Assembly (NCBI RefSeq): GCF_018881975.1
Contig: NZ_JACVPJ010000004.1
Span: forward strand, 202,290 to 266,289
DNA: 64,000 bases
Reading direction: 5' to 3'
From: Polynucleobacter sp. JS-Safj-400b-B2
GTDB lineage: Bacteria; Pseudomonadota; Gammaproteobacteria; Burkholderiales; Burkholderiaceae
Made by a program: the position numbers and the translations under genes. Positions 35,528 through 58,479 of the stretch are shown piece after piece. Under the pieces are notes generated by a model, which was not told the DNA's origin, ran no database searches, and worked only from the letters and a program-made list of their open reading frames with translations. Positions within the stretch are counted from its first letter, which is position 1; every line of letters begins with the position of its first letter.

Positions 35528-36517
35528 ATGATCAATCACGAAACAATCTTATCGACGCTTTACATTGCACTAAACCCCATCAAAGAATATTTGGAGGGTG
35601 ATGGCATCAATGAAATCATGATTAATCCAGGGGGCGATGTCTGGATTGAGCGAAGGGGAATGATTGAGCATATTGGCGTTTTACTCAACGAGAATCAAAT
35701 AAAATTCGCCATTTATTCGGTAGCCAAACTCACCGGTAAGGCGGCAAGCCCAGGCGATGAAAATGCGCTAGTCAACGCAGCTTTTGAAGATTTTCGTTTT
35801 GCAGGAGTGCTGCATCCCATTTCACCTGATGGAAGCACGATTTGCATTCGAAAACATCAGGATAAAAGTCAGAGGCAGACTTTTGAAGATATGATTGACT
35901 GCGCCATGATTACCCAATCTCAAGGCGATTTTATATTGGATATGTTTGTTAAAAAGCATCAAAATATCATCATCGCAGGTATTACTGGCTCGGGCAAAAC
36001 AACCCTTTTAAATGCAATTGCCGGAAAAATACCAAACCATGAACGGGTGGTTACGATTGAAGATACAAGAGAACTCCATATATCTGTGGCGAATAAAGTA
36101 TCACTGTTATCAAATGAGCTTAACAATATTCATGCGGTAGATTTGGTTAAAGAGGCTTTGCGCCTGCGCCCGGACCGGATATTGCTAGGGGAAACACGTG
36201 GGTCAGAAACATTCGACTTAATAAGGGCCTTTAATTCGGGCCACGCCGGCATATCCACTGTACATGCTAATTCAGCAGTGCTGGCCTTAGATGCGATTGA
36301 GATGCTTTATCAAATGAGCCTACCAAAAGGAGCGGGCATTAGTTCGGCAGTGGTAAGACAGTACATTGCAAAATCAGTCAACATGACTATCTATGCAAAT
36401 CGACGATATATCCCGCAGCCAGACGGCACTATTCGCGCCGTTCGTAAAGTTGAGGAAATTTGTGTAATCAAGGGGCTTGATCGCGATGGAAATTACGAGG
36501 TTGAATACATCAAATAA
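35528..36517 (+). CDS. trbB: VirB11/TrbB-family type IV secretion ATPase
   Basis: Walker A GITGSGKTT, TIEDTRE (the Asp box), Walker B RILLGETRG and the His box HAGISTVHANS. Confidence 0.8.
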   Translation: MINHETILSTLYIALNPIKEYLEGDGINEIMINPGGDVWIERRGMIEHIGVLLNENQIKFAIYSVAKLTGKAASPGDENALVNAAFEDFRFAGVLHPISPDGSTICIRKHQDKSQRQTFEDMIDCAMITQSQGDFILDMFVKKHQNIIIAGITGSGKTTLLNAIAGKIPNHERVVTIEDTRELHISVANKVSLLSNELNNIHAVDLVKEALRLRPDRILLGETRGSETFDLIRAFNSGHAGISTVHANSAVLALDAIEMLYQMSLPKGAGISSAVVRQYIAKSVNMTIYANRRYIPQPDGTIRAVRKVEEICVIKGLDRDGNYEVEYIK

Positions 36518-36646
36518 TTTTTAATTTATCAACGACCATGTAAGCACTAGTGGTCTGTGGTCGTTGCCATAAGCTGTTGATTTAAAACAAATCTCATTTT
36601 TTACAATACGACCATCGAGGGTATTTTTTTTGAAATGAAATATATA

Positions 36647-36672
36647 AACCGGGACGAATCCCGGCTTTTATG
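36647..36672. terminator. Bidirectional hairpin terminator (ccggga-cgaat-cccgg) between convergent genes
   Basis: GC stem followed by CTTTTA on the plus strand and by a T-rich tract on the minus strand. Confidence 0.5.
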
Positions 36673-36688
36673 GTGTCAATTAAATTTA

Positions 36689-37057
36689 CTATTGGACAAT
36701 CCAACCCGTTGGGCAAGACTGTGCGACTGGGTAGAAAGCATTTGAAGGAGGGCAGAAATAAGTTAAAGGCCGTACATTTGGGTTTGGCTGCGTAACAAAT
36801 ACTTGCGGTTGCTGTTGAATGTAAATGGCTTGTGGTTGAACGTATGCGGACGGATAGTAAGGTCCATAACTATAGCCATAAGATCCATACCCATATCCGT
36901 AAGGAGCGTATGGGCGGTAATAGGAGTTTGCTGCAATAACGGTGCCGACCATCGCCCCACCAAGCAGGGCCGCACCCCAATTTCCGCCTCCATGAGCAAA
37001 AGATGGCGATGATAATAGTCCAGTTGTTGCCAATAATGCGATTAGAATTTTTTTCAT
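36689..37057 (-). CDS. Secreted Gly/Tyr-rich protein
   Basis: Signal peptide MKKILIALLATTGLLSSPSFA, then GYGYGSYGYSYGPYY repeats. Confidence 0.45.
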   Translation of the reverse strand: MKKILIALLATTGLLSSPSFAHGGGNWGAALLGGAMVGTVIAANSYYRPYAPYGYGYGSYGYSYGPYYPSAYVQPQAIYIQQQPQVFVTQPNPNVRPLTYFCPPSNAFYPVAQSCPTGWIVQ

Positions 37058-37130
37058 TTTTCCCCAAATCAGAGTCGTTGTTGGTACCTTAACAGTATTG
37101 CCGGTGATTTTGTTGACACAAGTTAACCAT

Positions 37131-38201
37131 TTAATTAGGCGCCTCGTCCCAAGTGCGCCCATCTAGGATCCGGCCAGCCTTTTTCTTGCCGACTCTACGC
37201 ATATGCACATCGCCACGCAAAAAACGGCCATCGCATTCGCGGTCAAACCGAACATGCTCGACAATTCCACAGCGCATATCGCCACCTAAATCGCCACCGG
37301 CACGCAGTTGATCCGGGTAGTATTCTCCCCATTGTTTAAATAAGAAAGGCACATCATGTCCAATGCATTGATCACGTAAATTTTGGGCCCATGCGGGATG
37401 CATAGGCCTTGCTCCAGGCCCTGATTCTCCGCCGACAATGACCCAATCGATACCGCAGTCCCAACCGGTCCATGAGGCTTCAATCCCGCAATGTGGGCAT
37501 AAAGGGATAACTTCTCCGTTGGCAGCCAAAAATACCTCAGTAGAATCTTTATCTACATAAGGTGTATCTGGGCACACATCCATGCAGGTAATGCCGGTAG
37601 GATCGAGCCAGCGCGCAATATCGATCCTTCCTAATAGCGGCTCAATGCTCAAAAAGCGCTTTGCAGCCGGCACCTTTAATAGTTTTGGAATATCGCGATC
37701 GGCTTCCTCTTGGTTGCAGATCGTTGCCCCAATCCATACATTAGGCCAAGGCCATTGCGCGAGGGGTGAATGATTGTGTTGGCCGGTGCTACATAGGCTG
37801 TCGGGCTCCAATTCCTCAGTAGCCCGCGCAATCATAGGCTGTGCATTTCCGATGCGCTTAGTTAAAAGTAGCCAGTCTAAATTCGGTGTTTGGCGAATGA
37901 GGGCAAATAAATCCGTGCGCCAGTGGCGTGGCACTGCATTATCAAATACATCGGCCAGCGAAGCGCAAAAGACCTTGTAGCGCACACCTTTTTCACCGGC
38001 TTCTTTATTCCATTTGAGCGGCTGCTTCCAGTTGGCCTCAGTTGTTCGGCGACGCTCGGCGTTGGGGCCCCACGCAACAGAGCCACTACGCTTTGCCCAA
38101 CTCTCTGCATAACAATGATCGCAAGCGGGCGACACTTTGGCGCAACCCGTCCAGGGATTAAAGGTGTGATCACACCATTCAATAGTAGTATCTTTTGCCA
38201 T
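37131..38201 (-). CDS. Phage Gp37/Gp68-family protein
   Basis: N-terminal IEWCDHTFNPWTGC...CDHCYA Cys/His cluster and a 356 aa size. Family call from memory of the IEW(T/C)...NP..GC signature. Confidence 0.55.
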   Translation of the reverse strand: MAKDTTIEWCDHTFNPWTGCAKVSPACDHCYAESWAKRSGSVAWGPNAERRRTTEANWKQPLKWNKEAGEKGVRYKVFCASLADVFDNAVPRHWRTDLFALIRQTPNLDWLLLTKRIGNAQPMIARATEELEPDSLCSTGQHNHSPLAQWPWPNVWIGATICNQEEADRDIPKLLKVPAAKRFLSIEPLLGRIDIARWLDPTGITCMDVCPDTPYVDKDSTEVFLAANGEVIPLCPHCGIEASWTGWDCGIDWVIVGGESGPGARPMHPAWAQNLRDQCIGHDVPFLFKQWGEYYPDQLRAGGDLGGDMRCGIVEHVRFDRECDGRFLRGDVHMRRVGKKKAGRILDGRTWDEAPN

Positions 38202-38202
38202 T

Positions 38203-38925
38203 TTATTTCCGTGAATTTTGAAAATTTACGGCGCCTGTCTCGCCTTGAGTCGCCTTGCCATTAATAGGCCTAAACTCAATAACCCAGACCCAAGGGTTTG
38301 AGTCCCAGTTTCTATAAATAGAGCTCCAAAGATCACGGAATGTGTCTTTTCCATTCCCAAAAAAGCCATCGTCATTATGAGCATAGCGAGTTGCGCTAAA
38401 CACGCTTACAGCTTTTACGCCCTCAGCCATTGCATCTGCCTCGCTAATATCTTGAAGTCGCTCAATGCGTACATTGGTGATCTCTAAAGTGATGCGACTA
38501 GCAGATCTGGGCATATGGATAGATGGGTGCCATGCTGATCTTCGCTCACCGCCACCGTCATCATCCCCAGCCCATTCGTGATCGCCATCGGCGGCATAAA
38601 TCACATGACCTGTGTAGTAGCCACGCCCATGTTTAAGTTCGTGGACGTGGGTAGCTGGCCTATCAGGAGTCCACTCAATCATGTCGCCGTCTGCGTTGAT
38701 TGCATAGCTTATAACACCCCATGTCTCCCGCACCCACAAGCGATCCCCCACTTGACCATAAGGGCAGGCAAGAATTGCGTCAGGATCTTCAACGTGCCAG
38801 TTTTTATCTTTGCATTGTGCTCGACCAGATGCGTTAAGTTTTACAATACGCCTGGTTTGTGTCTTAGTGCCGTCAAGAATGGCTCTCACCATGTCGCCAT
38901 TGAATAGGATAGGACGCTCGATCAT
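38203..38925 (-). CDS. ASCH/PUA-like domain protein
   Basis: An N-terminal ILFNGDMVRAILDGTKTQTRR motif of the kind commonly seen in ASCH-domain proteins. Confidence 0.45.
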   Translation of the reverse strand: MIERPILFNGDMVRAILDGTKTQTRRIVKLNASGRAQCKDKNWHVEDPDAILACPYGQVGDRLWVRETWGVISYAINADGDMIEWTPDRPATHVHELKHGRGYYTGHVIYAADGDHEWAGDDDGGGERRSAWHPSIHMPRSASRITLEITNVRIERLQDISEADAMAEGVKAVSVFSATRYAHNDDGFFGNGKDTFRDLWSSIYRNWDSNPWVWVIEFRPINGKATQGETGAVNFQNSRK

Positions 38926-39164
38926 GCTTGCTCACCTTTAGCTTTCTTGTCGCCATCACTCACATCTAGAAAGATGGCTTTGTTTTCGCCACATACCGGG
39001 CAGCAAGCGCTCTTAAGCAATGTGGCACATTTTTCCATCGGCATTGGCAGATACGCCGCAACCCAATGGTGATCGCAAGATTTGCAAAGTACCTTTAACG
39101 GTGTTTTAGAGGGTGGTTTTTCCATTTGAAGGCTCTCCCCCGTTAATATTTTTTTAGCGCTCAC
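38922..39164 (-). CDS. Small zinc-ribbon protein
   Basis: CKSCDHH...CCPVCG Cys pairs. Overlaps both neighbours by 4 nt. Confidence 0.4.
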   Translation of the reverse strand: MSAKKILTGESLQMEKPPSKTPLKVLCKSCDHHWVAAYLPMPMEKCATLLKSACCPVCGENKAIFLDVSDGDKKAKGEQA

Positions 39165-41047
39165 GCCGCCATCTCCATAAATTGTTTATCAACATAGTTT
39201 TTCGCAACCAACGCCTGCGCGATAGGTGGGCAAACAGAATTGCCGACCATCTTCACTTGATTGGTTTTCGATAAGGGCTTGCCTTTGAACTCAAATTCAT
39301 GGATATAGCTCTCTGGAAAGCCTTGAGCTAAATAAAGCTCATGTGGTTGGAGCATGCGCATACCAATATCGACAATGACATAAGGCTCGCCATTCAGATG
39401 TACGATAACTAGACCAAACCGGTCCTTGGTTGGTATTGTGTGCAAGGGCTCATCGAGCGGTACACCATCTTTTTCATTGCCGTAATACTTGACCAGCAAT
39501 GCTCGAACCTCGCCAGCATGAGTGCCCCCAGCGGTAACGGTGTGCAATGGTGAATTTACAGGGCTGCCAACGTTATCGCCACGCAATTTGACCATGTGGC
39601 TAGTAACTAGACCTTGTGTAATTGCGGTGCCTGGTCGTTTTGGTTGGCCACCCGCAATAATGGTGTGCATCGGGGTATCAAGCTCAAAGCCAGTGCTACC
39701 AGTATTGAACTTAGTCATATGGGCAGTAACGACCGAATGATGATCAACTGTGGTGACAGTGCCGGTTGGCTTATCTAATGGCTGGCCAAGAACGCCCGTG
39801 TAATGTTTGGCCAAGAACGCCGATACAAGTGCGCGCCTATTCTCGGTGGTTTGGGTTTTTAAGGGCTCATCAAACGAAGATCCGCGCGTATCACCGGACT
39901 CAGTTTTATGGCCGTAATAGCTTGAAATATGCGCTGCCACCAGATTTTCTAACTCTTCTTCGTCTGCACCTTCATATGGAAGCTCAATTTCATCTAGTAC
40001 ATCAGAACAAGATGATTCACCACATTTTGGACATGTTGGATTTCTTTCGTAATCATCCACACCATATCGAGCGCCACAATTGTCGCAACCAAAGCGCCAA
40101 CGTCTAAGTGCGCCACTATCAGCTTTAGCTAGGGCTGGTACCACAATAGCCCTGTGATTTTCCGTGGGAACGGTACCCAGTGGTTTTAATGTTGACGATG
40201 GTTTTCCTGAATACACGGGGCCGCCTTGCCCGACAATAAATGGCTCCCCAGTCTCAATCACATAGCGCACTACACCTTTGGCTATGCGTTTAAGTGTTGA
40301 TTCAGCAAGAGGTTTCTTGCGATCAAAAATTGAAGGGCAGGGAATGGACCAGTCAATACACTCAGCTGCAGTTCGCCATTCCTTAAGCCTCTTAGGGTCA
40401 AAGCCTTTTGCCTTTGGGTTTCCATGAGTAATTTGTGGCCACTCAATTGGCATGCCATCGCAGCGAGCCACCAAAAAGAGGCGCTTGCGAATAGTTGGAG
40501 CTCCGTAGTCACTAGCGACCAAGGTTTTCCATTCAACTTGGTAGCCTAGTCTTTTTAATGCTTCAATCCATAGGTCAAAGGTTTTGCCTTTGCGTTTTTT
40601 GCATGGCATGAAGCCGCCAGTTTTTTTATCCTTAACAACAGGTCCCCAAAACTGCATTTCTTCAACGTTTTCCATCATGATTACGCGAGGGCGTACTTTG
40701 GAGGCCCAGCGAACCACCACCCAAGCAAGAGATCTCAACTGCTTGGAAACAGGGGTTCCCCCACGTGCTTTAGAAAAATGAGTGCATGACGGGCTGGCCC
40801 AGAGCAAACCAACAGGCCGACCACCGCTAGCCTCAACCGGATCAACCTCAAAAATGTCTGAGCAGTAATGCTTAGTTTGAGGGTGATTGGCTGTATGCAT
40901 GGCAATAGCTGCTTCATCATGGTTGATCGCGATATCGACTGAGCGACCGATAGCCGCTTCTATACCGGTAGATGCACCACCACCGCCTGCAAATAAATCT
41001 ACGACGAGCTCGTTATGGATGGGGAGATTAAATTGGGGTGTAAGCAT
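39161..41047 (-). CDS. DNA (cytosine-5)-methyltransferase with an enlarged variable region containing about six reiterated TRD-like modules and an internal zinc ribbon
   Basis: Motif I DLFAGGGG, motif IV ASPSCTHFS (PC), motif VI ENV (MMENVEEM). Repeated modules PLxT(V/I)xxxxHxxLVxxxxxKxxG occur at least six times. The CDNCGARYG...CPKCG segment is a Zn ribbon. Confidence 0.8.
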   Translation of the reverse strand: MLTPQFNLPIHNELVVDLFAGGGGASTGIEAAIGRSVDIAINHDEAAIAMHTANHPQTKHYCSDIFEVDPVEASGGRPVGLLWASPSCTHFSKARGGTPVSKQLRSLAWVVVRWASKVRPRVIMMENVEEMQFWGPVVKDKKTGGFMPCKKRKGKTFDLWIEALKRLGYQVEWKTLVASDYGAPTIRKRLFLVARCDGMPIEWPQITHGNPKAKGFDPKRLKEWRTAAECIDWSIPCPSIFDRKKPLAESTLKRIAKGVVRYVIETGEPFIVGQGGPVYSGKPSSTLKPLGTVPTENHRAIVVPALAKADSGALRRWRFGCDNCGARYGVDDYERNPTCPKCGESSCSDVLDEIELPYEGADEEELENLVAAHISSYYGHKTESGDTRGSSFDEPLKTQTTENRRALVSAFLAKHYTGVLGQPLDKPTGTVTTVDHHSVVTAHMTKFNTGSTGFELDTPMHTIIAGGQPKRPGTAITQGLVTSHMVKLRGDNVGSPVNSPLHTVTAGGTHAGEVRALLVKYYGNEKDGVPLDEPLHTIPTKDRFGLVIVHLNGEPYVIVDIGMRMLQPHELYLAQGFPESYIHEFEFKGKPLSKTNQVKMVGNSVCPPIAQALVAKNYVDKQFMEMAA

Positions 41048-41142
41048 GATTAGAATTCAGCGGAAAGAAAACTCATCTTCCCCTTGAAATACCATAAGTC
41101 AAACTGCCAACACTATAATTAGCACGTCGGCAAATGCATGCA

Positions 41143-41715
41143 TTAATTAACTTTGCTTACTTTGATCAAAACTTCCTTGTGATGTCCATTGATATCATTC
41201 GCAATTGCAATCTCCTCGTCCAGAGTCACAACCAGGTTTGATTCGATGCGCGTACTTTCAACTGTCGGCACTTGGACTGTCAGATCACCTACCCGCACAT
41301 CCTTCATGCTTAGTAATTTAGATGTAAGCATCTCAAACTTTAAATTTAGATGACGATTATCAAGCCGGTCTCCGCGCTCCAAAGAAGTCCAGATGGTGTT
41401 GCCGACTTGCAAGTCCTTGTAATGCGATGATTCATGCGCGACCCCGCCAGCCTCTACAGTTGATAAGCTGGAGTCAAGATAACCAATTGTTTGACCAGTT
41501 TGAGTGATGCCTTTTCGACCATCCGCAAGTGTCAAGATGGTGAAATCACTATCGATGATCCCATTTTCCATGATGCTGATACGAACTGCATATTGTTCCG
41601 CATTGTTTTTGGTTAGCTTATCTGGCTCATGGCATTTATCTGCGCTCGCAGCCCCAGAAAATAGGGTCATTGCTAAAAACATTGGGCCAAAAAAACTAAT
41701 TGATGTCGCCTTCAT
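41143..41715 (-). CDS. Secreted hypothetical protein
   Basis: Start chosen at MKATSISFFGPMFLAMTLFSGAASA, a signal peptide. Confidence 0.4.
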   Translation of the reverse strand: MKATSISFFGPMFLAMTLFSGAASADKCHEPDKLTKNNAEQYAVRISIMENGIIDSDFTILTLADGRKGITQTGQTIGYLDSSLSTVEAGGVAHESSHYKDLQVGNTIWTSLERGDRLDNRHLNLKFEMLTSKLLSMKDVRVGDLTVQVPTVESTRIESNLVVTLDEEIAIANDINGHHKEVLIKVSKVN

Positions 41716-41948: not shown

Positions 41949-42281
41949 ATGAATGCCATTGCACTTACATCGCCACAATTAAAAAGATTCTTTCAAAAGA
42001 TGTCGTGGCCGATCATAGGCTTTATTGGGCTCTTAATGATGGGCGTTGATGTCGCTAACGCACAGGGAATCAACACTGCCGCTTTTTGCTTTTTTATCAA
42101 CAACTTCAAGCTAATCATTGCTGCAGTAGCAGTCATCGCCTTAATGGTTTGGGGCGCAATGTACATGATGAAAAAAGCAGATATAGCCGATGTTGGGTTA
42201 TATATTATTTCGGCTTGCGTACTCGTTGGTGCCGCGGGTGCAATCATTATGAATACCGGTTTAATGCCCCCTAGCTGTTAA
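41949..42281 (+). CDS. VirB2/TrbC-like conjugative pilin
   Basis: A 110 aa protein with a long leader and two hydrophobic segments, immediately upstream of VirB3/VirB4 homologues. Confidence 0.5.
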   Translation: MNAIALTSPQLKRFFQKMSWPIIGFIGLLMMGVDVANAQGINTAAFCFFINNFKLIIAAVAVIALMVWGAMYMMKKADIADVGLYIISACVLVGAAGAIIMNTGLMPPSC

Positions 42282-42297: not shown

Positions 42298-42633
42298 ATG
42301 CTCAGAAACTCTTATGTTTACAAGGCACTTTCAAGAACGCACTTGGTTTTGGGAATTCCTGTAAAAATATTGGCCATTATTTGGTCAATTGCCTCCTTCA
42401 CAATCCTAGGTCTGTGGGTGGCTAAAGCATTGACTTGGTGGGATTGTATTGGCGTGCTAGCCATATTTTGGGCTATCCACAATCTGATTGCAGTCCAATT
42501 TGATAAGGATTCATTAATAGACAAGATTTATAAAATCTATTCAACAACCAAAGACCACTACCACCCAGAGTCCCGCATCTTAGATCGCATGCATGAGCGC
42601 CCAAGTAAATACGGCAGAGGCGTGCGATGCTAG
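42298..42633 (+). CDS. VirB3/TrbD-like protein
   Basis: A 111 aa protein with two TM helices. Its stop overlaps the VirB4 start. Confidence 0.5.
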   Translation: MLRNSYVYKALSRTHLVLGIPVKILAIIWSIASFTILGLWVAKALTWWDCIGVLAIFWAIHNLIAVQFDKDSLIDKIYKIYSTTKDHYHPESRILDRMHERPSKYGRGVRC

Positions 42634-45164
42634 GCCTTCGATTTAAAGATAAAGAAGTTGCCGGACCGGTACAGGAGGTCTGCCCATGGTTAGATTTTAT
42701 TAACCCTGAAATGATCCTATGCAAAGACGGTTCATTGCTTGCTGGCTTTGAATTTAATGGCGTAGACATTGAAAACGCTACCGATGAGCATAAAAATGCG
42801 GTAGTCAACGAGCTTCAAAGAGCTTATCAAGGGTTTGATAACAGAGATACGCTAACCTGGGTGTTTGACAAAAAGCGATCGTACAGCTATCCAGAAAATA
42901 TCTTTCTCAATCCAATCTCCAAAAGAATTGATGACCTGTACTCCGAGCCATTTCGGCAGGGTTACTACTTTACCCTCTCAAATCGCCTGTATTACCTTTA
43001 TACGGGCAAGGCCGGTATTGCGCGATTTATGGATACGTTCGCAAGAGAGACTGAAAAAAACGGAAAAAATGCATTAACGGCATTGCTTTTAGCCGCAAAG
43101 GACTCTCTAACCGGAAGAATTAGCTATGAAATCGATGGGCAGCAAATCATGCATAACATCGAGCAATTTGAGCGCCGTCTTACGCAGTTCTTAGTTCAAA
43201 CTCCGTCGATTAAATGGAAAAGGCTTGGGTATGAGGATTTAAAAAATGCTCTTTCAATGCAAATCAATCCAGCCTCAATCAACCACACAGCCAAAAAACC
43301 ATTTGGTCAAATGCTTGACTCATGGTTACCTAGTAATACGGTTACGCCCGGATCTGACATTATCCGATTTGATGGAGCTGGACGGACAAAGTACATGAGC
43401 ATTATTGGCATAAAGGAATGGCCAAACTTAACTCACCCTGACCTAATGGGTAAGTTAATGGAGATTGATACCGAAGTTACCGTTTGCCAGACTATGCGAT
43501 TTCTGGGTCATAAAGGGACGCAAGCCAAGCTAAATGATGCGGTAGATTTTTACAAGCTAACCCAAGTTGGGATCATAAAAAACGCCATCGCCAAGCTGAC
43601 TAAGAAACCCCCTGAACCTGACCCGGGCAAATATGAATTATATGCAGAATGCGTTCAGGCTCTAGCCAGACTTGAGGTTGATAACATTCAGTACGGATAC
43701 CACACCATGGCCGTGTGTACTAGTGCCGAATCAAAGAAAGAGCTTGCTCAGTCAGTAGAAAACATCAGCACAGTTCTGAGTCGAAACTTTCAAATCATTG
43801 CTGAAAGCATGAATGCTTTCGCCTCATGGGCAGCGACATTGCCGGGGCAGTGGGCTATGCAGTCACGCTGGTCATTGGTGAGCAATGAGAATTTGGCTGA
43901 TATTTCCCCGATTTTCACTATTAATCATAGACCCAAAAATAATGGAGCATTTGAAGAAATGCTCGGCAAAAAAGCTAATGCACTTTGCGTGTTTAATGAT
44001 ATTTACGGTGGAGTTGAATATTTTAATAGTCATGTTGACCAAGTGGGGCACGCCATCATTATTGCACCAACAGGGGGCGGCAAAACCACCATTGTAAACC
44101 TAGCTTTATCACAATTTCAGAAATACACGAAGGATGGCAAAGAGCCAAATACGATTGTTTTTGATAGGGACTATTCGGTTCGCATAACCGCCAAGCTTCA
44201 GGATGCATCGCACATTGACTTAAAGTCTGGTCGCATTCGAATGAACCCATTAATGGCGCTCTTTGACGATGATGCAAATTCCAACGAGGAAAAAACCAAC
44301 ACAAAAGACGACTCCAATCAAGAAATCTCATCTACAACAAATGGGTTCTTATGGTGCAGGGATTTTGTGGGACGAAGAATTGAGGCAAATGGATACAAGC
44401 TAACTGCCGAGGACATTAAATCAATAGATGATGGGCTTTTAATGCTTAAGGGGTCGCCAGCTCAAAAGCCAAGATTATCTAAGTTGGCAATATTGCTGCC
44501 AAAGCATTTGGCGGCTGAGTTAGGGGAGTGGCTAGAAGGTCGTCCATTTGGCATGTTTGATTCCGAGGATGATGAGTTCTCCCTAAGCTCATTTACTTGC
44601 ATTGAAATGAAAGAGTTTTTGGAAAACGAAAGATTGGCCCAAGCCTTCTTGGATTATGCATTTCGCAAGGTTTATTCGAAGCTGGATGGTAGGCCAACCT
44701 TTATCTACATTGAAGAGGCATCATTCCTACTCAATCATCCTACGTTCCAAAAAATGCTCGATGACTGGTTAAAAACATTTCGCAAAAAAGGGGCATTTGT
44801 TTGGATGGCCGTTCAATCGCCAACGTCAATTGTCAACGCAGAGATAGCGGCCAGCATTACGGATAACGTTAAAACCAAAATATTGCTATTCAATAAATCA
44901 GCTGAAGCCCATCGTGATTCATATAAGAAGTATTTTGGACTTGATGATTATCAAGTTGACAGAATTGCAAGTTTAGTAAAAAAACGCGATTACTACATTA
45001 TTTCAGATGGCGAGGCACGCACAGTTCAAACCCAGTTTTCAAAAGAATGTCTTGCCTATTTGAGATCTGAACAGCATTTGCAGAATATTTACGACGCCAC
45101 ATACAGCCCAGATGATGATAGCTGGAAAGAAAAATATATTGAAAAGGTCATGGTGCTTAAGTGA
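42627..45164 (+). CDS. trbE: VirB4/TrbE-family conjugative transfer ATPase
   Basis: An 845 aa protein with Walker A IIAPTGGGKTT and Walker B-like FIYIEEASFL. The gene context is pilin-VirB3-VirB4. Confidence 0.8.
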   Translation: MLGLRFKDKEVAGPVQEVCPWLDFINPEMILCKDGSLLAGFEFNGVDIENATDEHKNAVVNELQRAYQGFDNRDTLTWVFDKKRSYSYPENIFLNPISKRIDDLYSEPFRQGYYFTLSNRLYYLYTGKAGIARFMDTFARETEKNGKNALTALLLAAKDSLTGRISYEIDGQQIMHNIEQFERRLTQFLVQTPSIKWKRLGYEDLKNALSMQINPASINHTAKKPFGQMLDSWLPSNTVTPGSDIIRFDGAGRTKYMSIIGIKEWPNLTHPDLMGKLMEIDTEVTVCQTMRFLGHKGTQAKLNDAVDFYKLTQVGIIKNAIAKLTKKPPEPDPGKYELYAECVQALARLEVDNIQYGYHTMAVCTSAESKKELAQSVENISTVLSRNFQIIAESMNAFASWAATLPGQWAMQSRWSLVSNENLADISPIFTINHRPKNNGAFEEMLGKKANALCVFNDIYGGVEYFNSHVDQVGHAIIIAPTGGGKTTIVNLALSQFQKYTKDGKEPNTIVFDRDYSVRITAKLQDASHIDLKSGRIRMNPLMALFDDDANSNEEKTNTKDDSNQEISSTTNGFLWCRDFVGRRIEANGYKLTAEDIKSIDDGLLMLKGSPAQKPRLSKLAILLPKHLAAELGEWLEGRPFGMFDSEDDEFSLSSFTCIEMKEFLENERLAQAFLDYAFRKVYSKLDGRPTFIYIEEASFLLNHPTFQKMLDDWLKTFRKKGAFVWMAVQSPTSIVNAEIAASITDNVKTKILLFNKSAEAHRDSYKKYFGLDDYQVDRIASLVKKRDYYIISDGEARTVQTQFSKECLAYLRSEQHLQNIYDATYSPDDDSWKEKYIEKVMVLK

Positions 45165-51113: not shown

Positions 51114-51750
51114 TATGAATTATAAATACGTAACGTCATTAATGTGCTCAATAATTTTTGCTGGGTCTTGCTCCGCACAAGGCGTGCCTGCCGGTGCTGA
51201 GGCACCCATTAACAAATCTAATTCCACCCCAATTAATAAAAGCCAGCAAATAATCCTGCCTCAGACTCAAATTGGCCAAACCAAACCAGATGATGAGGCT
51301 AGCGCTCTTAAGCTTGCTTTAAAAAAAATTAGCGATTCACGCGCGCTACTCTCGGAGCAGATTGCTGAGCTAGAACTGCGCAAGAAGATTGCAAGTCTAA
51401 CCAGCGAAATTAATTCCCTACAGTCCGGGAAGGGGGGTATTCCAACCGGGAGTCCAGGGCAAGGGGTTACGCAACAATCACCAGTACCAGGTTATGTCTT
51501 ACAGCAAAACCCTCCAGACAATGGCTCAAATTCAGATAGATCCATAAGGTCGCAAAGCCTATTATTTCCTACCATCATTGACATTTACGGGTTTGATGGT
51601 GATAACAAGGCAACCGCTATTTTGCCAACAGGTGAAAAGATTACCCTGTCCGCTGGGTCTAAATACAAGTCATGGGAAGTAGTTGACATCAATTCATCAG
51701 GCGTGGTCATAAAGTCTGGAAATAAAACTCAATTACTAAGAATTAGATAG
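51100..51750 (+). CDS. Periplasmic pilus assembly protein (PilP-like)
   Basis: Start chosen at MPSNNMNYKYVTSLMCSIIFAGSCSAQG, a signal peptide. Contains a coiled-coil. Confidence 0.3.
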   Translation: MPSNNMNYKYVTSLMCSIIFAGSCSAQGVPAGAEAPINKSNSTPINKSQQIILPQTQIGQTKPDDEASALKLALKKISDSRALLSEQIAELELRKKIASLTSEINSLQSGKGGIPTGSPGQGVTQQSPVPGYVLQQNPPDNGSNSDRSIRSQSLLFPTIIDIYGFDGDNKATAILPTGEKITLSAGSKYKSWEVVDINSSGVVIKSGNKTQLLRIR

Positions 51751-51761
51751 AGAAAACTTTT

Positions 51762-53219
51762 ATGAGTATTAGAACCGGTCCAGACGGGGATGTATCTATT
51801 GGGAATGATCTTAGGGACGTTCTCTGCTTAACGGCTGATGGGCGCCTGTACATCTCCAAAACACATATTACTGCGCCAAATGTCAGGGCATTTATGGGTA
51901 GATTGGATAGGCTGGGCGAGCAATACAAAGTTGTTCAATGCGAACTTGGAAAAATATCGCAAATATATGAGTCCTACTCGGCTGATGGCGGTGACGTGCT
52001 ATCAATATTCCAAGGGAAAGCGGTTGATTTATTTGCTAGGGCAGTTAGCGAAAATGCCTCGGATATTCACTTATCTGTTAGTAAAACCGAGGCTACGAAA
52101 ATTAAATTTCGCATTAACGGAATGCTTCAGCTAATTGAGGAGCACCCTTATGATTTCGGTCAAAAACTTTGCTCAACAATCTATCAATCATTGACGGATG
52201 TCTCCGCGCCAACTTTTGAGACAAATGCACCACAAGATGCCCGAATTGCTGATAAAAAAAATTTGCCAAACCAGATTAATGGTATTCGTATCGCAACCGG
52301 TCCACAGGTGGATGGGTTCCTAATGGTTTTACGGCTTTTATATAACCCAACGAACATGGATTTAAACTTACTTTCACTGGGATACTCTGAGGCTCAAAAG
52401 AAAGATATTGAAGATATTGAAAAGAACCCTACTGGCATCGCAGTTATAGCCGGCTCTACGGGGTCTGGTAAATCCACCACTTTGCAACGCATCCTCACCA
52501 GGATCATTGAATCATCAAAGGGGTCAATTAATGTTATTACTGTTGAGGATCCGCCTGAATACCTAATTAAGGGCGCGATTCAGTCGCCTGTTGCTAACGC
52601 CAAAACCGAAGAGGATCGTTCAGCAGCATTTCAACTCGCAATCAAGGCGGCAATGCGACTGGACCCAGACTCGATGATGGTTGGAGAGGTAAGGGATCAT
52701 CCATCTGCCAGCCTAGCGATTAAGGCCGCTTTATCTGGGCACCCGCTTTGGACAACAGTACATGCGAATAATGGGTTTGGGATTATTACTAGGCTACTTG
52801 ACATTGGTGTAAGCATTAATCTGCTTTGCGATCCAAATGTAATTTCAGGCCTTATTTGTCAAACATTGGCTCGTGTACTCTGCGAAAAGTGCAAAGTTAA
52901 GCTGTCTGACAATAAGGGCGAAGTATCCGCTGAGGATTTCGCTCGATATACAGAAAAACTAGAGATTGAAAACGTCTATCTAAGGGGCTGCGGCTGCGAA
53001 CATTGCAAAAATACAGGAGTAACCGGAAGAACTGTGGTGGCTGAGGTTATTAAGACAAACTATAAAATTTTGGAATTAATTAAAGCAGGGAATCATGAAG
53101 AGGCGATGAAATATTGGGTGAGTACCGGAGGCATCACAATGAAGGGCCACGCAATTAGCAAGGTAAACGCTGGAATATGTGATCCTAGTGATACGGAATC
53201 TTTGGTGGGGCAATTTTGA
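51762..53219 (+). CDS. GspE/PilB/TcpT-family type IV pilus assembly ATPase (R64 PilQ-like)
   Basis: Walker A GSTGSGKST, an Asp box, Walker B MMVGEVRD, the His box and a tetracysteine CEKCK...CEHCK motif. Confidence 0.85.
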   Translation: MSIRTGPDGDVSIGNDLRDVLCLTADGRLYISKTHITAPNVRAFMGRLDRLGEQYKVVQCELGKISQIYESYSADGGDVLSIFQGKAVDLFARAVSENASDIHLSVSKTEATKIKFRINGMLQLIEEHPYDFGQKLCSTIYQSLTDVSAPTFETNAPQDARIADKKNLPNQINGIRIATGPQVDGFLMVLRLLYNPTNMDLNLLSLGYSEAQKKDIEDIEKNPTGIAVIAGSTGSGKSTTLQRILTRIIESSKGSINVITVEDPPEYLIKGAIQSPVANAKTEEDRSAAFQLAIKAAMRLDPDSMMVGEVRDHPSASLAIKAALSGHPLWTTVHANNGFGIITRLLDIGVSINLLCDPNVISGLICQTLARVLCEKCKVKLSDNKGEVSAEDFARYTEKLEIENVYLRGCGCEHCKNTGVTGRTVVAEVIKTNYKILELIKAGNHEEAMKYWVSTGGITMKGHAISKVNAGICDPSDTESLVGQF

Positions 53220-54307
53220 ACGCCAGGGCCCTGGACGGCATGAAGCTCAGTTTAAATAAGATTTTATTTAAATCAGATGCCACTGGAAGAAAGCGTTTGT
53301 GGACAAAATTGGCAACGTTGATCAAAAACGGCGTTCCAATTAAAAGTGCGCTTACAACTCTACATTCAAGGCGAATACAAATTGGTAAAGGAGGGGCACC
53401 GGACGCCATCGCACTTTCTCATTGGCTTCAGCGTATCAATAATGGCAGCTCAATTGCTGGATGCACAAAAGGCTGGGTGACAGACGAAGAGCAGATGCTT
53501 CTAAGTGCAGGTGAAAAATCTGGCGATATCTTAAAGTCACTAGAAGCTATGTGCAGGATTATGACTGCAAAAGCATCAATTAAAGGTGCCGTGATTGGTG
53601 GTGTAGCGTACCCCATTTTTATTGTATTGATGTTATTCGGTTTCATGTATCTTTTTGGGTATAAGTTGATCCCATCATTTTTGAATTTAGCCCCAGTAGA
53701 AAAATTTTCAGGATTTGGCTACCTTATAGCCAGGGCAAGCATTGTTACTCAATATGCACTGCTGCCATTTATGGCCTTTTGCATAGCTGCTATAGCTGTT
53801 TTTATGCTTTCGCTCCCAAGATGGAATGGGGAATTTCGCATTAAATTGGATGGCTTTAAACCCTATTCGATCTATCGCATCATTCAAGGTAGCAGCTGGC
53901 TTATTAGCTTTTCAGCCCTCGTTAAATCAGGAGTTCGGATTGAAGATGGTTTAGAGCAGATGGCAAAATTAGCGAACCCTTGGCTAAAAATACGATTGCT
54001 TGCCTGTTTAAAGGGGCTTAAATCAGGACTAACAGTTGGGGATGCCTTGCTAAGGGCTGGGCACAATTTTCCAGACAGGGAAATAGTAGATGATCTCATC
54101 ATCTACTCATCATTAAATGGGTTTGAAGATTCATTGGAATCTCTTGGAAATGAGTGGATTGAATCTTCGGAAAAAATAATATCAAGCCAGATGAAAGTTA
54201 TTTTTAATATTTTATTGGTTATAGCCATAATTATGATTGCCATGATGGTCGCTGGCATGATTGATATGCAGACCCAAATGAAGGACTTGCTGCAACAAAG
54301 GCATTGA
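53216..54307 (+). CDS. GspF/PilC/TcpE-family inner-membrane platform protein (R64 PilR-like)
   Basis: A 363 aa protein with three TM segments separated by two cytoplasmic domains. It overlaps the ATPase stop. Confidence 0.65.
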   Translation: MNARALDGMKLSLNKILFKSDATGRKRLWTKLATLIKNGVPIKSALTTLHSRRIQIGKGGAPDAIALSHWLQRINNGSSIAGCTKGWVTDEEQMLLSAGEKSGDILKSLEAMCRIMTAKASIKGAVIGGVAYPIFIVLMLFGFMYLFGYKLIPSFLNLAPVEKFSGFGYLIARASIVTQYALLPFMAFCIAAIAVFMLSLPRWNGEFRIKLDGFKPYSIYRIIQGSSWLISFSALVKSGVRIEDGLEQMAKLANPWLKIRLLACLKGLKSGLTVGDALLRAGHNFPDREIVDDLIIYSSLNGFEDSLESLGNEWIESSEKIISSQMKVIFNILLVIAIIMIAMMVAGMIDMQTQMKDLLQQRH

Positions 54308-54463
54308 CCTCTGAGTAGATTAAAGTTAGCCGATGGGGACTAAGCCCCAAGTTTGCGCAACTAAATGCTCGATAAGCGCAAATATATTTGAGATTTCATT
54401 TTGCCGTATCAAGCCTCATTAATAACAATCTAACTTAGCAATCTTGCTAAATTTTGGAGAATT

Positions 54464-54997
54464 TTGATGAATATTTTGGGTAAGCTATTTAAACGGCAAA
54501 AAGGTGTGACCCTAACGGAAGCGTTGGGTGTATTGGTTATTCTGGCACTATTGCTTGGCGGCGCATATGCGCTCTTAACAAGCGCTACGACCTCGCAACA
54601 ATCTAGTCAGTTGGGTGCAGACGTTGCATCTCTTCGTGCAGCCACAAAACAACTTTGGGGTGGGCAAGGAAGCTATGGATCCACATCATTAAATGCAACA
54701 TTAATTAGCGCTGGTCGTGTACCAAGCGATTTACCGGTTAGCGGTGCGGTAATCTCCAATCAGTTTGGAGGTACTGTTACGGTTACCGGCGCAACAAGTG
54801 CATTTACTGTTGCGGTAACCGCAATTCCAACATCAAACTGTGTGGCGTTAATCTCTAATGCTACCGTTAGCTGGACATCAATTCAGGTTGGCGCGGCAGC
54901 AGCCATTACAACCTTCCCGGTATCGCCAGCTACAGCAGCCAGCGCAACTAACTGCGGTGCGTCAAACTCGAACACCATCACGTTCACATCTAACTAA
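54464..54997 (+). CDS. Type IVb prepilin (major pilin, PilS-like)
   Basis: Leader MMNILGKLFKRQKG, then VTLTEALGVLVILALLLGG with Glu at position +5 of the mature protein. Confidence 0.7.
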   Translation: MMNILGKLFKRQKGVTLTEALGVLVILALLLGGAYALLTSATTSQQSSQLGADVASLRAATKQLWGGQGSYGSTSLNATLISAGRVPSDLPVSGAVISNQFGGTVTVTGATSAFTVAVTAIPTSNCVALISNATVSWTSIQVGAAAAITTFPVSPATAASATNCGASNSNTITFTSN

Positions 54998-55044
54998 TGA
55001 TGAATTAACCAGCATTGGATATTTCAATGCTGGTTTTCTAACTC

Positions 55045-55485
55045 ATGTTTCCACTATGCATGGCCTCATTTGGCGCGCTAATACTTTCCTTTTACCTCGC
55101 ATTTACGCTACCTCAAGAGGCAAGTATTAACACTGCTACATCAACGGATATTTCGGCAACAAATTTTATTGCCTATAGAGAATCTCTACTGCGATATAAA
55201 AATGCTAACCCAGGAGCCTCTGGCTCAATCCCGGATTCGTCTCTAACATTTGATCCGGGCTATATCAGAAATTACTTATGGTTCAACACCATCTCAGGAG
55301 GGGTCCTGTATGTATATGGCAATACCAGTAATGATGTGTTAAATAATTTGTATCAAAAAACACTAAATTCAAATCTGGTTGGCACTAATTCTTCTGGCGT
55401 ATTAATAAACGAGACTGGTGCTTCCACAGGAGTTTCATTGCCCGCGATAATCCCGTCTGGCGCCATTGTTTTTGTTGGGAGCTAG
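55045..55485 (+). CDS. Small N-terminally anchored hypothetical pilus-cluster protein
   Basis: A single N-terminal TM. Located between the pilin and PilV-like genes. Confidence 0.3.
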   Translation: MFPLCMASFGALILSFYLAFTLPQEASINTATSTDISATNFIAYRESLLRYKNANPGASGSIPDSSLTFDPGYIRNYLWFNTISGGVLYVYGNTSNDVLNNLYQKTLNSNLVGTNSSGVLINETGASTGVSLPAIIPSGAIVFVGS

Positions 55486-55488
55486 GCG

Positions 55489-56595
55489 ATGCCTAAGACG
55501 CTAAAAACGGCTCAACACTTTCGCAATAGAAATAGAGGTATCACTTTAGTTGAGGTTATTGGCGGATTATTTATTCTAAGCATGGTTATGATCATGCTTA
55601 ACCAAATCACCACATCGATTCTGGATAACACCAAGGCAAATCTCACGGCAACCTACGAAACGACGGTTGCAAATGCTGCGCAAGCTTATATTAAAACCAA
55701 TTACAGCGCCGTCGCCTCGGTGGCAACCTCAACCACGCCGGCCTTAATTACTATCCAAAGTTTAATTAATACTGGGTTTTTACAGTCAGGTTTTTCATCT
55801 AAAAATCCCTACTCTCAGAGTACTTGCATTCTTGTTTTGCAGCCATCAAGCAATCAACTGCAAGGGATTGTGGTCTCAGAGTCAGGCACGGTAATTGATG
55901 ATGTGATGTTGGGCAGCATTAGCTCAACAATGGGGGCGGCTGGTGGAGGCATATACAGCTCAGCAACTGCAACAATAAAAGGTGCCGCCGGAAGCTGGTC
56001 AACACCAACTTCTGGCTTTAGCGTTCCCAATAGCGCCGGCACAAATTGTAATGGTATGGCCGGCAATGTTTCGCTAGCGGCCGGCCACCCCGTCTACGCG
56101 TTATGGTTTGCAAATGGGGATATTGCAAGCTCTTTTTTGTACAGAAATTCGGTTAGCGGAAATCCTAGCCTCAACACAATGAACACTCCATTGATCATGG
56201 CCTCAGTTCAAACTGCTGCATCAGCATGCACAACCACCGGATCAATAGCAGTTAACGCGCAGGGCTTGGTACTGAGCTGCCAAAGCGGCACATGGCAACT
56301 GCAAAGTAGCTCATATTGGCTTTCACCAGTAACTACCTACGCAAATTTACCGTCAACCGATCAAGCTGGGTCAGTACGCCTTACTGCAGACACCAATAGA
56401 GTTTTCGTGTGGAGTGGGGCATCTTGGCTTGCGCTTGGTGTTGACCAAAGTGGTAATTTTACGGACCCAGGCAAACTATCAACAGGCCAGGTTGCGCTAA
56501 CGGCAACTACAGCCACGAATGGAGCAAGCTGCGCGACTTACGGCACTGGTGTTGTGTCAAGAGATGCTTCGGGGAATATTTATGTGTGTAAGTAA
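55489..56595 (+). CDS. PilV-like minor prepilin/adhesin
   Basis: Prepilin leader ending RNRNRG, then ITLVEVIGGLFILSMVMIM. A 368 aa Ser/Thr/Ala-rich body. Confidence 0.6.
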   Translation: MPKTLKTAQHFRNRNRGITLVEVIGGLFILSMVMIMLNQITTSILDNTKANLTATYETTVANAAQAYIKTNYSAVASVATSTTPALITIQSLINTGFLQSGFSSKNPYSQSTCILVLQPSSNQLQGIVVSESGTVIDDVMLGSISSTMGAAGGGIYSSATATIKGAAGSWSTPTSGFSVPNSAGTNCNGMAGNVSLAAGHPVYALWFANGDIASSFLYRNSVSGNPSLNTMNTPLIMASVQTAASACTTTGSIAVNAQGLVLSCQSGTWQLQSSSYWLSPVTTYANLPSTDQAGSVRLTADTNRVFVWSGASWLALGVDQSGNFTDPGKLSTGQVALTATTATNGASCATYGTGVVSRDASGNIYVCK

Positions 56596-56693
56596 TCAAT
56601 TGGATTCGCTCACTTTTCTCTAATTACTTATTTCCCTGCCGCCTAAACATAACTCTTTAATGAATTGATTCAGTTTCATTAAAGGGTTATGCC

Positions 56694-57827
56694 ATGATGT
56701 CTATTGCTCGGGGTTTTCACAGCCTCATTTATGCCGTTGTTCTCTTCCTAGGTCTCAATATTTCGGGGGGTGACCTTGGCTCGGCATATGCTCAAACATG
56801 GCAAAACGTTCCTGCGCAGTCCGGCAGTGCTGGTACTTGGCAGGCGTTAAGCTGTAATACTACCTCCAATCTCACTTGGCAGCCACTAGGTTGCAACCCG
56901 GTTACTTATAGCTGTCCGACAGGTTATACGCTATCAGGACAAACTTGCTCAATCACCGTATTTAGCGCGGCAATCTCTGTTTATGGATGTTCTAGCGGGG
57001 TTTTAAGTGGGACGAGCTGTATTGCGAGCAGCACTGTCGCGGCGACTTTGGGCTATAGCTGCGGGTCTGGATACACCCTGTCCGGTAGCTCATGCACCAA
57101 ATCCACAACAACGGCAGCCACTGCTAATTATTATTGCCCAAGCGGCGGTAGTTTAGGGGGCACCACTTGTACTGTTAGCGGAAGTTATGGAGCGTCAATC
57201 GCTTCGTACTATTGCCCAAGCGGCGGTAGTTTGGGGGGCGCCTGGTGCAACACTAGCTGGAGTTATGGAGCTAGTGGTGCAGCGTCCGGCTGCAGTGCTG
57301 GACTATTTACGGGCGGAAGATGTCGCTTTGGCCCATCACCCCAATCCGCATACAACTCGCAATTTTGCCCAAATCAAACTGTCACCGGTGGACCGGGCGG
57401 ACTATATCCAACTTACTACTATTATTGCCCTACTTATATTACCTATAGCTATTCCTGCCCGTCGGGCGGTTCTTTAAGTGGCGCTACTTGTTATGTTTCA
57501 TCTGGCTATGGTGCGTCAATCGCTTCGTACTATTGCCCAAGCGGGGGCAGCTTGTCTGGATCGACTTGCTTTACCTCCTCATCCTATGGCGCTTCCGTTG
57601 GCTCGTATTCATGTGGCTCTGGCACTTTATCTGGCTCATCATGTATCACCACAACAACAGTGCCAGCAACCCCAATTTATTCATGCTTAAGCGGAGTTTT
57701 GTCGGGATCTACCTGTGCAGTCTCGACTACAACTGTCGCCGGCATTACAGGCTACTATTGCAACACTGGAGCGCTATCGGGGTCACAATGCTCCACAACG
57801 GTTACGATACCGGCTACGGCGAATTGA
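56694..57827 (+). CDS. Secreted Cys-rich tandem-repeat protein (about 13 copies of a 19-22 aa Y(S/Y)CxSGxLSGxxC module)
   Basis: Signal peptide MMSIARGFHSLIYAVVLFLGLNISGG...AYAQ. Near-identical roughly 60 nt DNA repeats around 57120-57300 and 57440-57590. The alternate-frame ORFs here are artefacts of those repeats. Confidence 0.55.
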   Translation: MMSIARGFHSLIYAVVLFLGLNISGGDLGSAYAQTWQNVPAQSGSAGTWQALSCNTTSNLTWQPLGCNPVTYSCPTGYTLSGQTCSITVFSAAISVYGCSSGVLSGTSCIASSTVAATLGYSCGSGYTLSGSSCTKSTTTAATANYYCPSGGSLGGTTCTVSGSYGASIASYYCPSGGSLGGAWCNTSWSYGASGAASGCSAGLFTGGRCRFGPSPQSAYNSQFCPNQTVTGGPGGLYPTYYYYCPTYITYSYSCPSGGSLSGATCYVSSGYGASIASYYCPSGGSLSGSTCFTSSSYGASVGSYSCGSGTLSGSSCITTTTVPATPIYSCLSGVLSGSTCAVSTTTVAGITGYYCNTGALSGSQCSTTVTIPATAN

Positions 57828-57909
57828 ATTTTCGCCGAAATGAATCCATCCGACTCATTCAGATAGAATTAGCAATTAATTAATCCACCAAGACTCGGGA
57901 GTCACTCTA

Positions 57910-58479
57910 ATGACCAGTTTTTTGAAAAAAAATGTCGCGCTTATATTGCTTGCTCTAGCTATGATTGCGACCCGTGGAAACCATATCGTAACTGCAATTA
58001 GTCTGTCTGATGCGTCTTGGGCAATCTTCTTCCTCCTGGGTTTTTATTCTGCGCGCAAGTCTTTGTTTTTGGCTTTTATTGCTTTGGCGGCATTTATTGA
58101 TTATGTTGTCGTAACCAAACTAGGGGTGAGCGACTATTGCATTACGCCAGCTTATGCCTTCTTGATTCCCGCTTATTTCTCCATGTGGTTTGCAGGGCGC
58201 ATATTTACAAAGCAATACCAGACAAACGCAATGGCATTTGTAACCCTTGCTAAATTTATAATCATCGGCGCTGCAACATGCGAAATCATCTCCAGTGGCA
58301 GCTTTTACTTCCTCAGCGGTCGCTTTTCCGAAAATACCTTATCTGGGTTTGGCGAACGTCTAATTGAGTACTTTCCATATGACCTCATGAGTACATCGAT
58401 GTACCTAGGTATTGCTATATTAGTTCATATTGCGGGAATTATCATGAAGCATAACGTTGCCGTTAAAAGCGCCTGTTAG
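57910..58479 (+). CDS. Integral membrane protein (six predicted TM helices)
   Basis: Hydrophobic throughout. Last gene before the riboswitch/btuB region. Confidence 0.4.
   Translation: MTSFLKKNVALILLALAMIATRGNHIVTAISLSDASWAIFFLLGFYSARKSLFLAFIALAAFIDYVVVTKLGVSDYCITPAYAFLIPAYFSMWFAGRIFTKQYQTNAMAFVTLAKFIIIGAATCEIISSGSFYFLSGRFSENTLSGFGERLIEYFPYDLMSTSMYLGIAILVHIAGIIMKHNVAVKSAC

Follow-up and report, generated by a model that had tools for sequence, protein, structure and literature searches.

A probable mating-pair-formation region in Polynucleobacter joins a VirB/Trb-type secretion system to a type IVb pilus cluster

The transfer system of the IncI1 plasmid R64 is Dot/Icm-like (I-type) and not VirB-like. 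The I-type class has been described (PMC11873049), and IncI2 plasmids (R721, TP114 and mcr-1 IncI2 plasmids) are known to combine a VirB/D4-type type IV secretion system (T4SS) with an R64-like pilus; PilS is its major and PilV its minor pilin, and mating pairs are stabilised by it both in liquid and in the gut (PMC11873049, PMC9045228, PMC7508951). A "pil locus" next to trb/tra genes is also reported for the backbone shared by pMOL28, pHG1 and pRALTA in the genome paper of C. metallidurans CH34 (PMC2864759), to which we liken the present locus by description only. Here we analysed a 64-kb stretch of DNA from Polynucleobacter sp. JS-Safj-400b-B2 (the whole stretch is termed the window), in which VirB/Trb-type genes adjoin a type IVb pilus (pil) cluster. 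Three window proteins were 100% identical to proteins of this strain: VirB4 (MBU3625962.1), a TcpQ-domain protein (MBU3625965.1) and PilD (MBU3625979.1). For the 23-kb region carrying the apparatus (35528–58479), megablast returned no near-identical DNA from plasmid or phage collections. Near-identical copies were present in several metagenome samples.

We read this region, with a probability of roughly 75%, as the portion of a large mobile element (an integrative and conjugative element or integrated plasmid) that serves mating-pair formation, encoding a complete VirB/Trb-type T4SS whose operon is split by a methylase module and by a pilus insert of ~16.5 kb. Gene families were assigned with Pfam and NCBIfam, scanning all open reading frames of at least 300 residues. 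For comparison we used the metagenome loci L001, L007 and L008, the megaplasmid NZ_CP017750 of Cupriavidus sp. USMAA2-4 (L021) and the plasmid NZ_CP151407 of Azonexus hydrophilus (L023), together with a close clade formed by L004/L005 (86% VirB4 identity) and L006 (71%), the locus L020 from the same metagenome as L006, and two metagenome contigs, L024 and L026, that are >99% identical to the window end. The right-hand edge of the window, where this reading is decided, carries two features:

62917–63786, minus strand: PilD-type prepilin peptidase (A24); Pfam A24_N_bact 1e-35 and Peptidase_A24.
63891–64000, plus strand: 5′ end of virB8, the first 36 codons, truncated by the window edge; identified by tblastn and protein identity.

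The last 110 bases of the window (63891–64000, plus strand) encode MPIFKQKQPSPASGVPDYTPGPVDEAVKKEYFERGS, which is the N-terminus of VirB8. They were detected by tblastn with the VirB8 proteins of relatives (L007 and L001 queries, E = 4e-5 and 1e-3), and the fragment is identical in 36 of 36 positions to the 234-residue VirB8 P0214, that is MBU3625980.1 of the same genome, which is annotated as "type IV secretion system protein" and whose accession is consecutive to that of PilD, MBU3625979.1. The contig L024, 99.2% identical to window positions 52993–64000, runs 983 bases further and there encodes the full 234-residue VirB8, which shares a 90%-identity cluster with P0214, and residues 1–129 of VirB9. 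L026, 99.45% identical to positions 62729–64000, yields a VirB8 product (PF04335) exactly matching MBU3625980.1, followed by VirB9 (CagX, 276 residues), VirB10 (TrbI, 464 residues), a 311-residue TcpQ-domain protein and a 515-residue secretin, and then by proteins of 403 and 154 residues, a lytic transglycosylase (SLT), a phosphoadenosine phosphosulfate (PAPS)-reductase-like gene and small genes. With the 9.4 kb that this contig adds to the right of the window, the sequence seen amounts to ~73 kb. L020 is colinear with L026, its pilD likewise standing divergent from virB8-B9-B10 and a second secretin set; the divergent pilD–virB8 junction recurs in L020, L024, L025 and L026. Thus, the missing VirB8–VirB10 are an artefact of the window edge.

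Among the window reading frames scanned, no relaxase or coupling-protein family and no complete VirB8–VirB10 gene was recognised. The original prediction had reported the absence of all of these from the 64 kb, which stands for complete genes and fails for the first 36 codons of virB8; it had also proposed that the element might rely on genes upstream, and genes outside the window do exist, with VirB8–VirB10 lying downstream of it rather than upstream.

The same junction, here and in the relatives, leads us to count pilD as the element's own: it is part of the system, sited between the pil cluster and virB8, and not outside the cluster as had been supposed. Scans of genome and metagenome contigs with PilD returned distant PilD genes only, at 27–47% identity; the homologue at 47%, in L022, stands instead in a chromosomal pilBCD-coaE context. 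Given the pilD–virB8 junction, we rejected the view of pilD, dsbC and the TonB receptor gene as a chromosomal flank.

The remaining VirB/Trb-type genes lie within the window and were assigned as follows:

35528–36517, plus strand: VirB11/TrbB-type traffic ATPase; Pfam T2SSE 5e-39, NCBIfam VirB11/TrbB_P ~189 bits, below equivalog cut-offs.
41949–42281, plus strand: VirB2/TrbC pilin; Pfam TrbC 5e-4, 20.6 bits, below the cut-off of 27.9.
42298–42633, plus strand: VirB3; Pfam VirB3 3e-5, over the cut-off.
42627–45164, plus strand: VirB4/TrbE ATPase; Pfam CagE_TrbE_VirB 2e-16, NCBIfam VirB4_CagE on top with 322 bits.
45161–46015, plus strand: protein in the VirB5/TrbJ position; without family match, assigned by position and by homology to relatives.
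46027–47265, plus strand: VirB6/TrbL; Pfam TrbL 2.5e-17.

Where family scores were low, the relatives supplied further identities. VirB11 shares 44–51% identity with VirB11 of Cupriavidus-type relatives, and VirB2 45–47% with VirB2 of L001, L007 and L021. The VirB5-position protein has a homologue between virB4 and trbL in the relatives (60% identity to L006, 26–33% to L001 and L007). For VirB4 the best NCBIfam models were VirB4_CagE and TrbE, both under their equivalog cut-offs, with negligible scores for TraC of the F type and for the PFL_4706 types; the label VirB/Trb-type (MPF-T-like, for mating-pair formation) follows these family-model scores. Within the window, every T4SS and pil gene has its full length. 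Packing is tight from virB2 to pilV, and promoter-like or terminator-like sites were not enriched between 41 and 59 kb.

Directly behind trbL, the type IVb pilus cluster follows on the same strand:

47279–48187, plus strand: TcpQ-long, 302 residues, with signal peptide, VirB9-N-like domain and C-terminal TcpQ domain, in the PilL position; TcpQ 6e-8.
48196–49848, plus strand: PilN, type IVb secretin lipoprotein; TIGR02520 367.8 bits against a cut-off of 287.65, Pfam Secretin and Secretin_N_2, LSGC lipobox.
49854–51113, plus strand: PilO; Pfam PAP_PilO 7e-25 over the full length.
51100–51750, plus strand: PilP, its start at 51100 or 51115 being uncertain; TIGR03021 31.8 bits against a cut-off of 34.65, position conserved in relatives.
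51762–53219, plus strand: PilQ assembly ATPase, GspE family, with two CxxC motifs (CEKC, CEHC); Pfam T2SSE 4e-75.
53216–54307, plus strand: PilR platform protein, GspF family; Pfam T2SSF 3e-16.
54464–54997, plus strand: PilS, major type IVb prepilin; Pfam PilS 1.5e-22 and N_methyl.
55045–55485, plus strand: PilM; Pfam PilM 8e-34.
55489–56595, plus strand: PilV minor pilin, putative adhesin; Pfam Shufflon_N 3e-27 and N_methyl.
56694–58479, plus strand: two genes of unknown role, for a 377-residue Cys/Ser-rich repeat secreted protein and a 189-residue membrane protein; no family match.

The PilN secretin matches BfpB of PDB 9u5s (E = 1.7e-43) and is 37–40% identical to PilN on plasmids of Azonexus, Hydrogenophaga, Methylovorus and Polaromonas; PilQ shares 51% identity with the Azonexus plasmid ATPase. 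We rejected the possibility of a shufflon at pilV, as no sfx-like inverted-repeat family was present around or after the gene. Downstream of pilV there is a hairpin (56648–56691), and the sole tyrosine recombinase, a weak XerC/D-like match, is encoded 50 kb away at 4611–5675. The two genes that close the cluster are conserved at 99% in L024. In the first of them (56694–57827), the Cys/Ser/Gly-rich secreted protein consists of repeats of a C-x-S-G-x-L-S-G-x-x-C-like unit, and a 65-nucleotide DNA repeat occurs four times; standing directly after pilV, the protein could be a pilus-associated adhesin.

We compared this arrangement with the relatives identified through VirB4, which are 42–46% identical in L001, L007, L008 and L021 and more distant in L023 (30%). 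In L001, L007, L021 and L023 one unbroken row comprises a MOBH (TraI_2) relaxase, TraD, a small gene, DUF4400, VirB11, B2–B6 and B8–B10, and continues with a lipoprotein (DotD-like in Azonexus), TcpQ, the secretin, PilO, PilP, the ATPase, the platform protein and pilins. From virB2–virB10 to TcpQ and secretin the row is the same in L008, where a UvrD helicase and neither relaxase nor TraD stands in the flank seen upstream of virB11. Unlike these one-row clusters, the window order is broken at virB11/virB2 and again at virB6/virB8. The close clade shares the broken layout: in L004/L005 and L006 the methylase module occupies the same place upstream of virB2, between virB11 and virB2 wherever virB11 is seen, and TcpQ-PilN stands directly after trbL. 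A virB11 fragment in L006 (positions 3–344, minus strand) is inverted relative to virB4 when compared with the window and L004, which points to a further inversion within the clade.

The two halves of the apparatus have different affinities. VirB11 and VirB2–B4 are 34–51% identical to the Cupriavidus type and 21–35% to the Azonexus type, whereas PilN (38%), PilQ (51%), PilR (41%) and PilM (35%) resemble the Azonexus type and reach at most 30% with the Cupriavidus type. The apparatus is thus a mosaic of a Cupriavidus-like VirB set and an Azonexus-like pil cluster. Together with the one-row relatives, this mosaic of identities indicates that an ancestral one-row operon received ~16.5 kb (47279–63786) between its virB6 and virB8; in the simplest history suggested by the comparison, the insert would be a complete foreign type IVb pilus cluster with cargo and pilD, the cargo being the Cys-rich repeat protein, the membrane protein, the TonB-dependent receptor and DsbC. 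The original prediction was largely right on gene content and wrong on what is missing. Its gene list, including a trbB parted from the trbC-D-E-J-L-like genes by the methylase module, was confirmed by the family scans, the TcpQ/secretin/pil set does follow trbL directly with a gap of 14 nucleotides, and the chimeric character claimed for the joined VirB/Trb and R64-like type IVb pilus genes is supported in the form of this mosaic.

The gene at the trbL–pil junction was analysed further. TcpQ-long starts at a TTG codon (47279), 14 nucleotides past the trbL stop, and is preceded by an AAGGA ribosome-binding site. Its residues ~55–150 align with the VirB9 N-domain (clade alignment compared by hhalign with five VirB9 proteins, probability 90%, E = 1.4e-6); the Pfam CagX match was sub-threshold (E = 0.15), and several VirB9 proteins were matched by blastp with E values from 1e-4 to 2e-3, the register being consistent throughout. 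When 1.84 billion representative proteins were searched exhaustively, only three full-length members emerged, all of this clade. The single-sequence AlphaFold model had a predicted local distance difference test (pLDDT) score of 33 and was unusable as fold evidence. The TcpQ domain itself matches the lipoprotein chain that is present in 17 copies in PDB 9u5s (E = 2e-5), and as PilN likewise matches a chain of this structure, the pair fits a secretin with a 1:1 partner. TcpQ-long appears to be under purifying selection, with a ratio of nonsynonymous to synonymous substitution rates (dN/dS) of 0.15 across 225 aligned residues, where dS was high (~3). In L006 (4174–5037, minus strand), the counterpart of the small secreted protein encoded upstream of virB2 in the window (41143–41715) carries an extra VirB9 C-terminal domain (CagX 3e-16) that the window and L004 copies lack. 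These VirB9 pieces, in TcpQ-long and in the L006 protein, may be scars of rearrangement or a functional fusion.

The second TcpQ-secretin-PilO/P-like set (L026:4122–8273), whose PilO/P-like members are the proteins of 403 and 154 residues, follows virB10 without ATPase, platform or pilin genes in view. Its secretin is closest to that of L008 (36%) and is 26–28% identical to the window PilN. On this pattern, the simplest history would have this set as the ancestral one, kept downstream of the insertion. We consider it unlikely that TcpQ-long docks PilN onto the VirB core at its periplasmic ring, giving one coupled two-pilus mating machine, or alternatively that the second set serves as outer-membrane partner of the T4SS.

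Substitution patterns bear on the age of this layout. Most T4SS and pil genes show saturation of synonymous sites when the window is compared with L004, and the proteins are still 70–90% identical (VirB4 86%, PilQ 84%, PilS 90%); where dS could be estimated, dN/dS ranged from 0.03 to 0.36, with PilS at 0.03. L026 and L020 showed the same pattern of conserved proteins and saturated synonymous sites for VirB8–VirB10 and the second secretin, which appear, from this comparison, to be under purifying selection. Saturated dS combined with conserved proteins indicates that the rearranged system is old and maintained, and argues against a simple wreck.

For the working of such a system we propose the following. 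Equipped with an outer-membrane core of its own (VirB9/VirB10), the VirB machine would form the DNA-transfer channel and a short conjugative pilus. The PilS/PilV thin pilus would leave the cell through the PilN secretin, which the TcpQ-domain protein would hold in place, and would be powered by PilQ on the PilR platform, with PilD maturing the pilins and DsbC probably helping. By analogy with IncI1 and IncI2 plasmids, the thin pilus would stabilise mating pairs in liquid, and such a role would fit a planktonic host. We infer conjugative function and the part of the pilus in it; the relaxase and coupling protein would be encoded elsewhere in the element.

The following points weigh against this reading. 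No relaxase, coupling protein or origin of transfer (oriT) was seen in the 64 kb and the 9.4 kb beyond, and tblastn of the window with the TraI_2 and TraD proteins of relatives gave chance-level matches only. L006 and L020 contain split gene calls, which could reflect decay in that lineage or assembly errors. No VirB7-like lipoprotein was recognised, small open reading frames not having been searched systematically; VirB7 proteins are short and weakly conserved. Finally, the right-hand sequence comes from 99%-identical metagenome contigs and not from the isolate contig, with identity confirmed for the VirB8 protein only.

An alternative is a domesticated or decaying remnant that lost its relaxase and coupling protein and with them self-transfer, its genes persisting through inertia or the pilus alone being used for adhesion or aggregation. 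The relaxase, TraD and DUF4400 genes found directly upstream of virB11 in L001, L007, L021 and L023 are indeed missing from that place in the window and in L004 and L006, the operon has undergone heavy rearrangement, and the split gene calls of L006 and L020 would fit. We nevertheless hold a remnant to be unlikely: the T4SS and pil genes of the window are all full length, the layout is old by its saturated dS while the proteins remain 70–90% identical, near-identical copies occur in several metagenome samples, and the ~73 kb inspected are all of the element that has been seen. The lack of a visible relaxase and coupling protein would also suit a non-conjugative VirB-type system, used for protein delivery, contact-dependent killing or DNA release and uptake with the thin pilus making target contact, and VirB-type systems have repeatedly been exapted. 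This we regard as quite improbable, because the closest relatives with complete operons all have a MOBH relaxase and TraD in the operon, no effector-like or immunity-like genes were recognised beside the virB genes, and the surrounding cargo, with methylases, a ParM-like protein and a recombinase, is of the kind that conjugative elements typically carry. Least probable is the proposal of the original prediction that the VirB7/9/10 core was lost and that PilN with TcpQ, PilO and PilP became the outer-membrane conduit of a VirB2–B6/B11 inner-membrane machine, an idea suggested by the start of the TcpQ-domain gene and pilN 14 nucleotides after trbL, by the want of complete virB8–10 in the window and by the VirB9-N-like region of the TcpQ-domain protein, yet contradicted by the VirB8–VirB10 and VirB1-like enzyme directly to the right, given that virB8 begins at 63891, that full VirB8, VirB9 and VirB10, which the prediction had itself named as counter-evidence, were found just past the window on >99%-identical contigs (VirB9 and VirB10 on L026) with VirB8 annotated beside pilD in the same genome, and that VirB8–VirB10 are under apparent purifying selection relative to L020.

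Besides the mating-pair-formation genes, the right part of the window contains cargo in the two interruptions of the operon:

36689–41047, minus strand: cargo between virB11 and virB2, comprising a secreted Gly/Tyr-rich protein, DUF5131, two small open reading frames and a 628-residue C5 cytosine methylase; DUF5131 2e-90, DNA_methylase 3e-34.
41143–41715, minus strand: conserved small secreted protein, 190 residues, role unknown; no Pfam or NCBIfam match, orthologues in L004/L005 (67%).
59005–62629, mixed strands: cargo between the pil cluster and pilD, comprising a TonB-dependent receptor (plus), a 166-residue secreted protein (minus) and a DsbC disulfide isomerase (plus); Pfam Plug, TonB_dep_Rec_b-barrel, DsbC_N and Thioredoxin_2.

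The order TonB receptor–166-residue protein–DsbC is identical in L024. At the nucleotide level, window positions 36689–41644 (the methylase module with the adjoining small secreted-protein gene) are 84–88% identical to L004, compared with 69–72% for the flanking T4SS genes. The C5 methylase is 94% identical in protein sequence with a dS of 0.42, whereas its flanks are saturated. This lower divergence of the module suggests a recent exchange between related elements. Methylase modules as a defence system were rejected, PADLOC giving generic methyltransferase and helicase matches only.

The left part of the window (1–35000) consists of accessory and maintenance cargo, including a truncated HATPase_c_3 protein, a ParM-like actin, the weak XerC/D-like recombinase and two SPFH proteins, one of 692 residues. 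Further genes there encode an ATP-dependent ligase, an HD protein, an exonuclease, a metallophosphatase, DUF3268, DUF1173, Endonuclease_NS, NERD, an SNF2 helicase and an N6/N4 methylase. Across these 35,000 positions we recognised no known defence system in complete form. A tRNA-Met gene (13261–13335, minus strand) lies within a run of small minus-strand genes and is not adjacent to the recombinase at 4611–5675, and a 132-residue reading frame overlapping it is probably spurious. Among the relatives, NZ_CP017750 has an IscB RNA-guided endonuclease annotated between traD and the T4SS genes (L021:15779–17197), and NZ_CP151407 has a complete PRTRC system (A, B, C, E, F, ThiF) directly after the pil genes (L023:29008–33272). 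The latter plasmid also encodes two extra PilT-like ATPases, of which the window has none.

These results remove the false lead of a T4SS without an outer-membrane core and document a little-studied family of putative conjugation systems in betaproteobacteria that encodes a VirB-type T4SS together with a type IVb pilus as one unit. Evolution of the unit proceeds through the insertion of modules: the virB operon took up a second pilus cluster of another lineage, its original secretin set was kept and a VirB9-domain::TcpQ fusion arose. For Polynucleobacter, an abundant freshwater planktonic genus, the gene content makes the locus a candidate liquid-mating apparatus for horizontal gene flow.

Set against known systems, the one-row relatives and the pil locus of pMOL28, pHG1 and pRALTA establish that a VirB-type T4SS joined to a type IVb pilus is a known architecture. 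The clusters of the betaproteobacterial megaplasmids (NZ_CP017750, NZ_CP151407) have orthologous VirB11, B2–B6 and B8–B10, with 42–51% identity to the Cupriavidus type, and, as is the case here, their virB genes stand next to genes for TcpQ, the secretin, PilO, PilP, an ATPase, a platform protein and pilins. In contrast to them, the present locus has its virB11 cut off by the methylase module, a second pil cluster with cargo between virB6 and virB8, two secretin sets, and no relaxase and TraD beside virB11. With IncI2 plasmids it shares the co-occurrence of a VirB-type T4SS and an R64-like pilus, a likeness drawn from gene content; it differs in having no shufflon or shufflase by pilV, in the placement of the pil genes inside the virB operon, in its PilD-type peptidase and second secretin module, and in its betaproteobacterial host. 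The thin pilus of IncI1 R64 (pilI–pilV) is matched in that PilN passes the R64 PilN-family model and the PilO, PilP, PilQ, PilR, PilS, PilM and PilV families are present. The order is, however, not that of the IncI1 operon, as had been stated at first, since pilM comes after pilS, and since pilT, pilU and the shufflon are absent. The combination of a TcpQ domain with a PilN secretin recalls the TcpC-TcpQ pair of the Vibrio cholerae toxin-coregulated pilus (TCP) and the BfpB-lipoprotein pair of the bundle-forming pilus (BFP) of enteropathogenic Escherichia coli (EPEC; PDB 9u5s), except that here a VirB9-N-like domain precedes the TcpQ domain, a combination confined to this small clade. Within this known architecture, the two secretin modules and the VirB9-domain::TcpQ fusion of the Polynucleobacter locus are modest curiosities.

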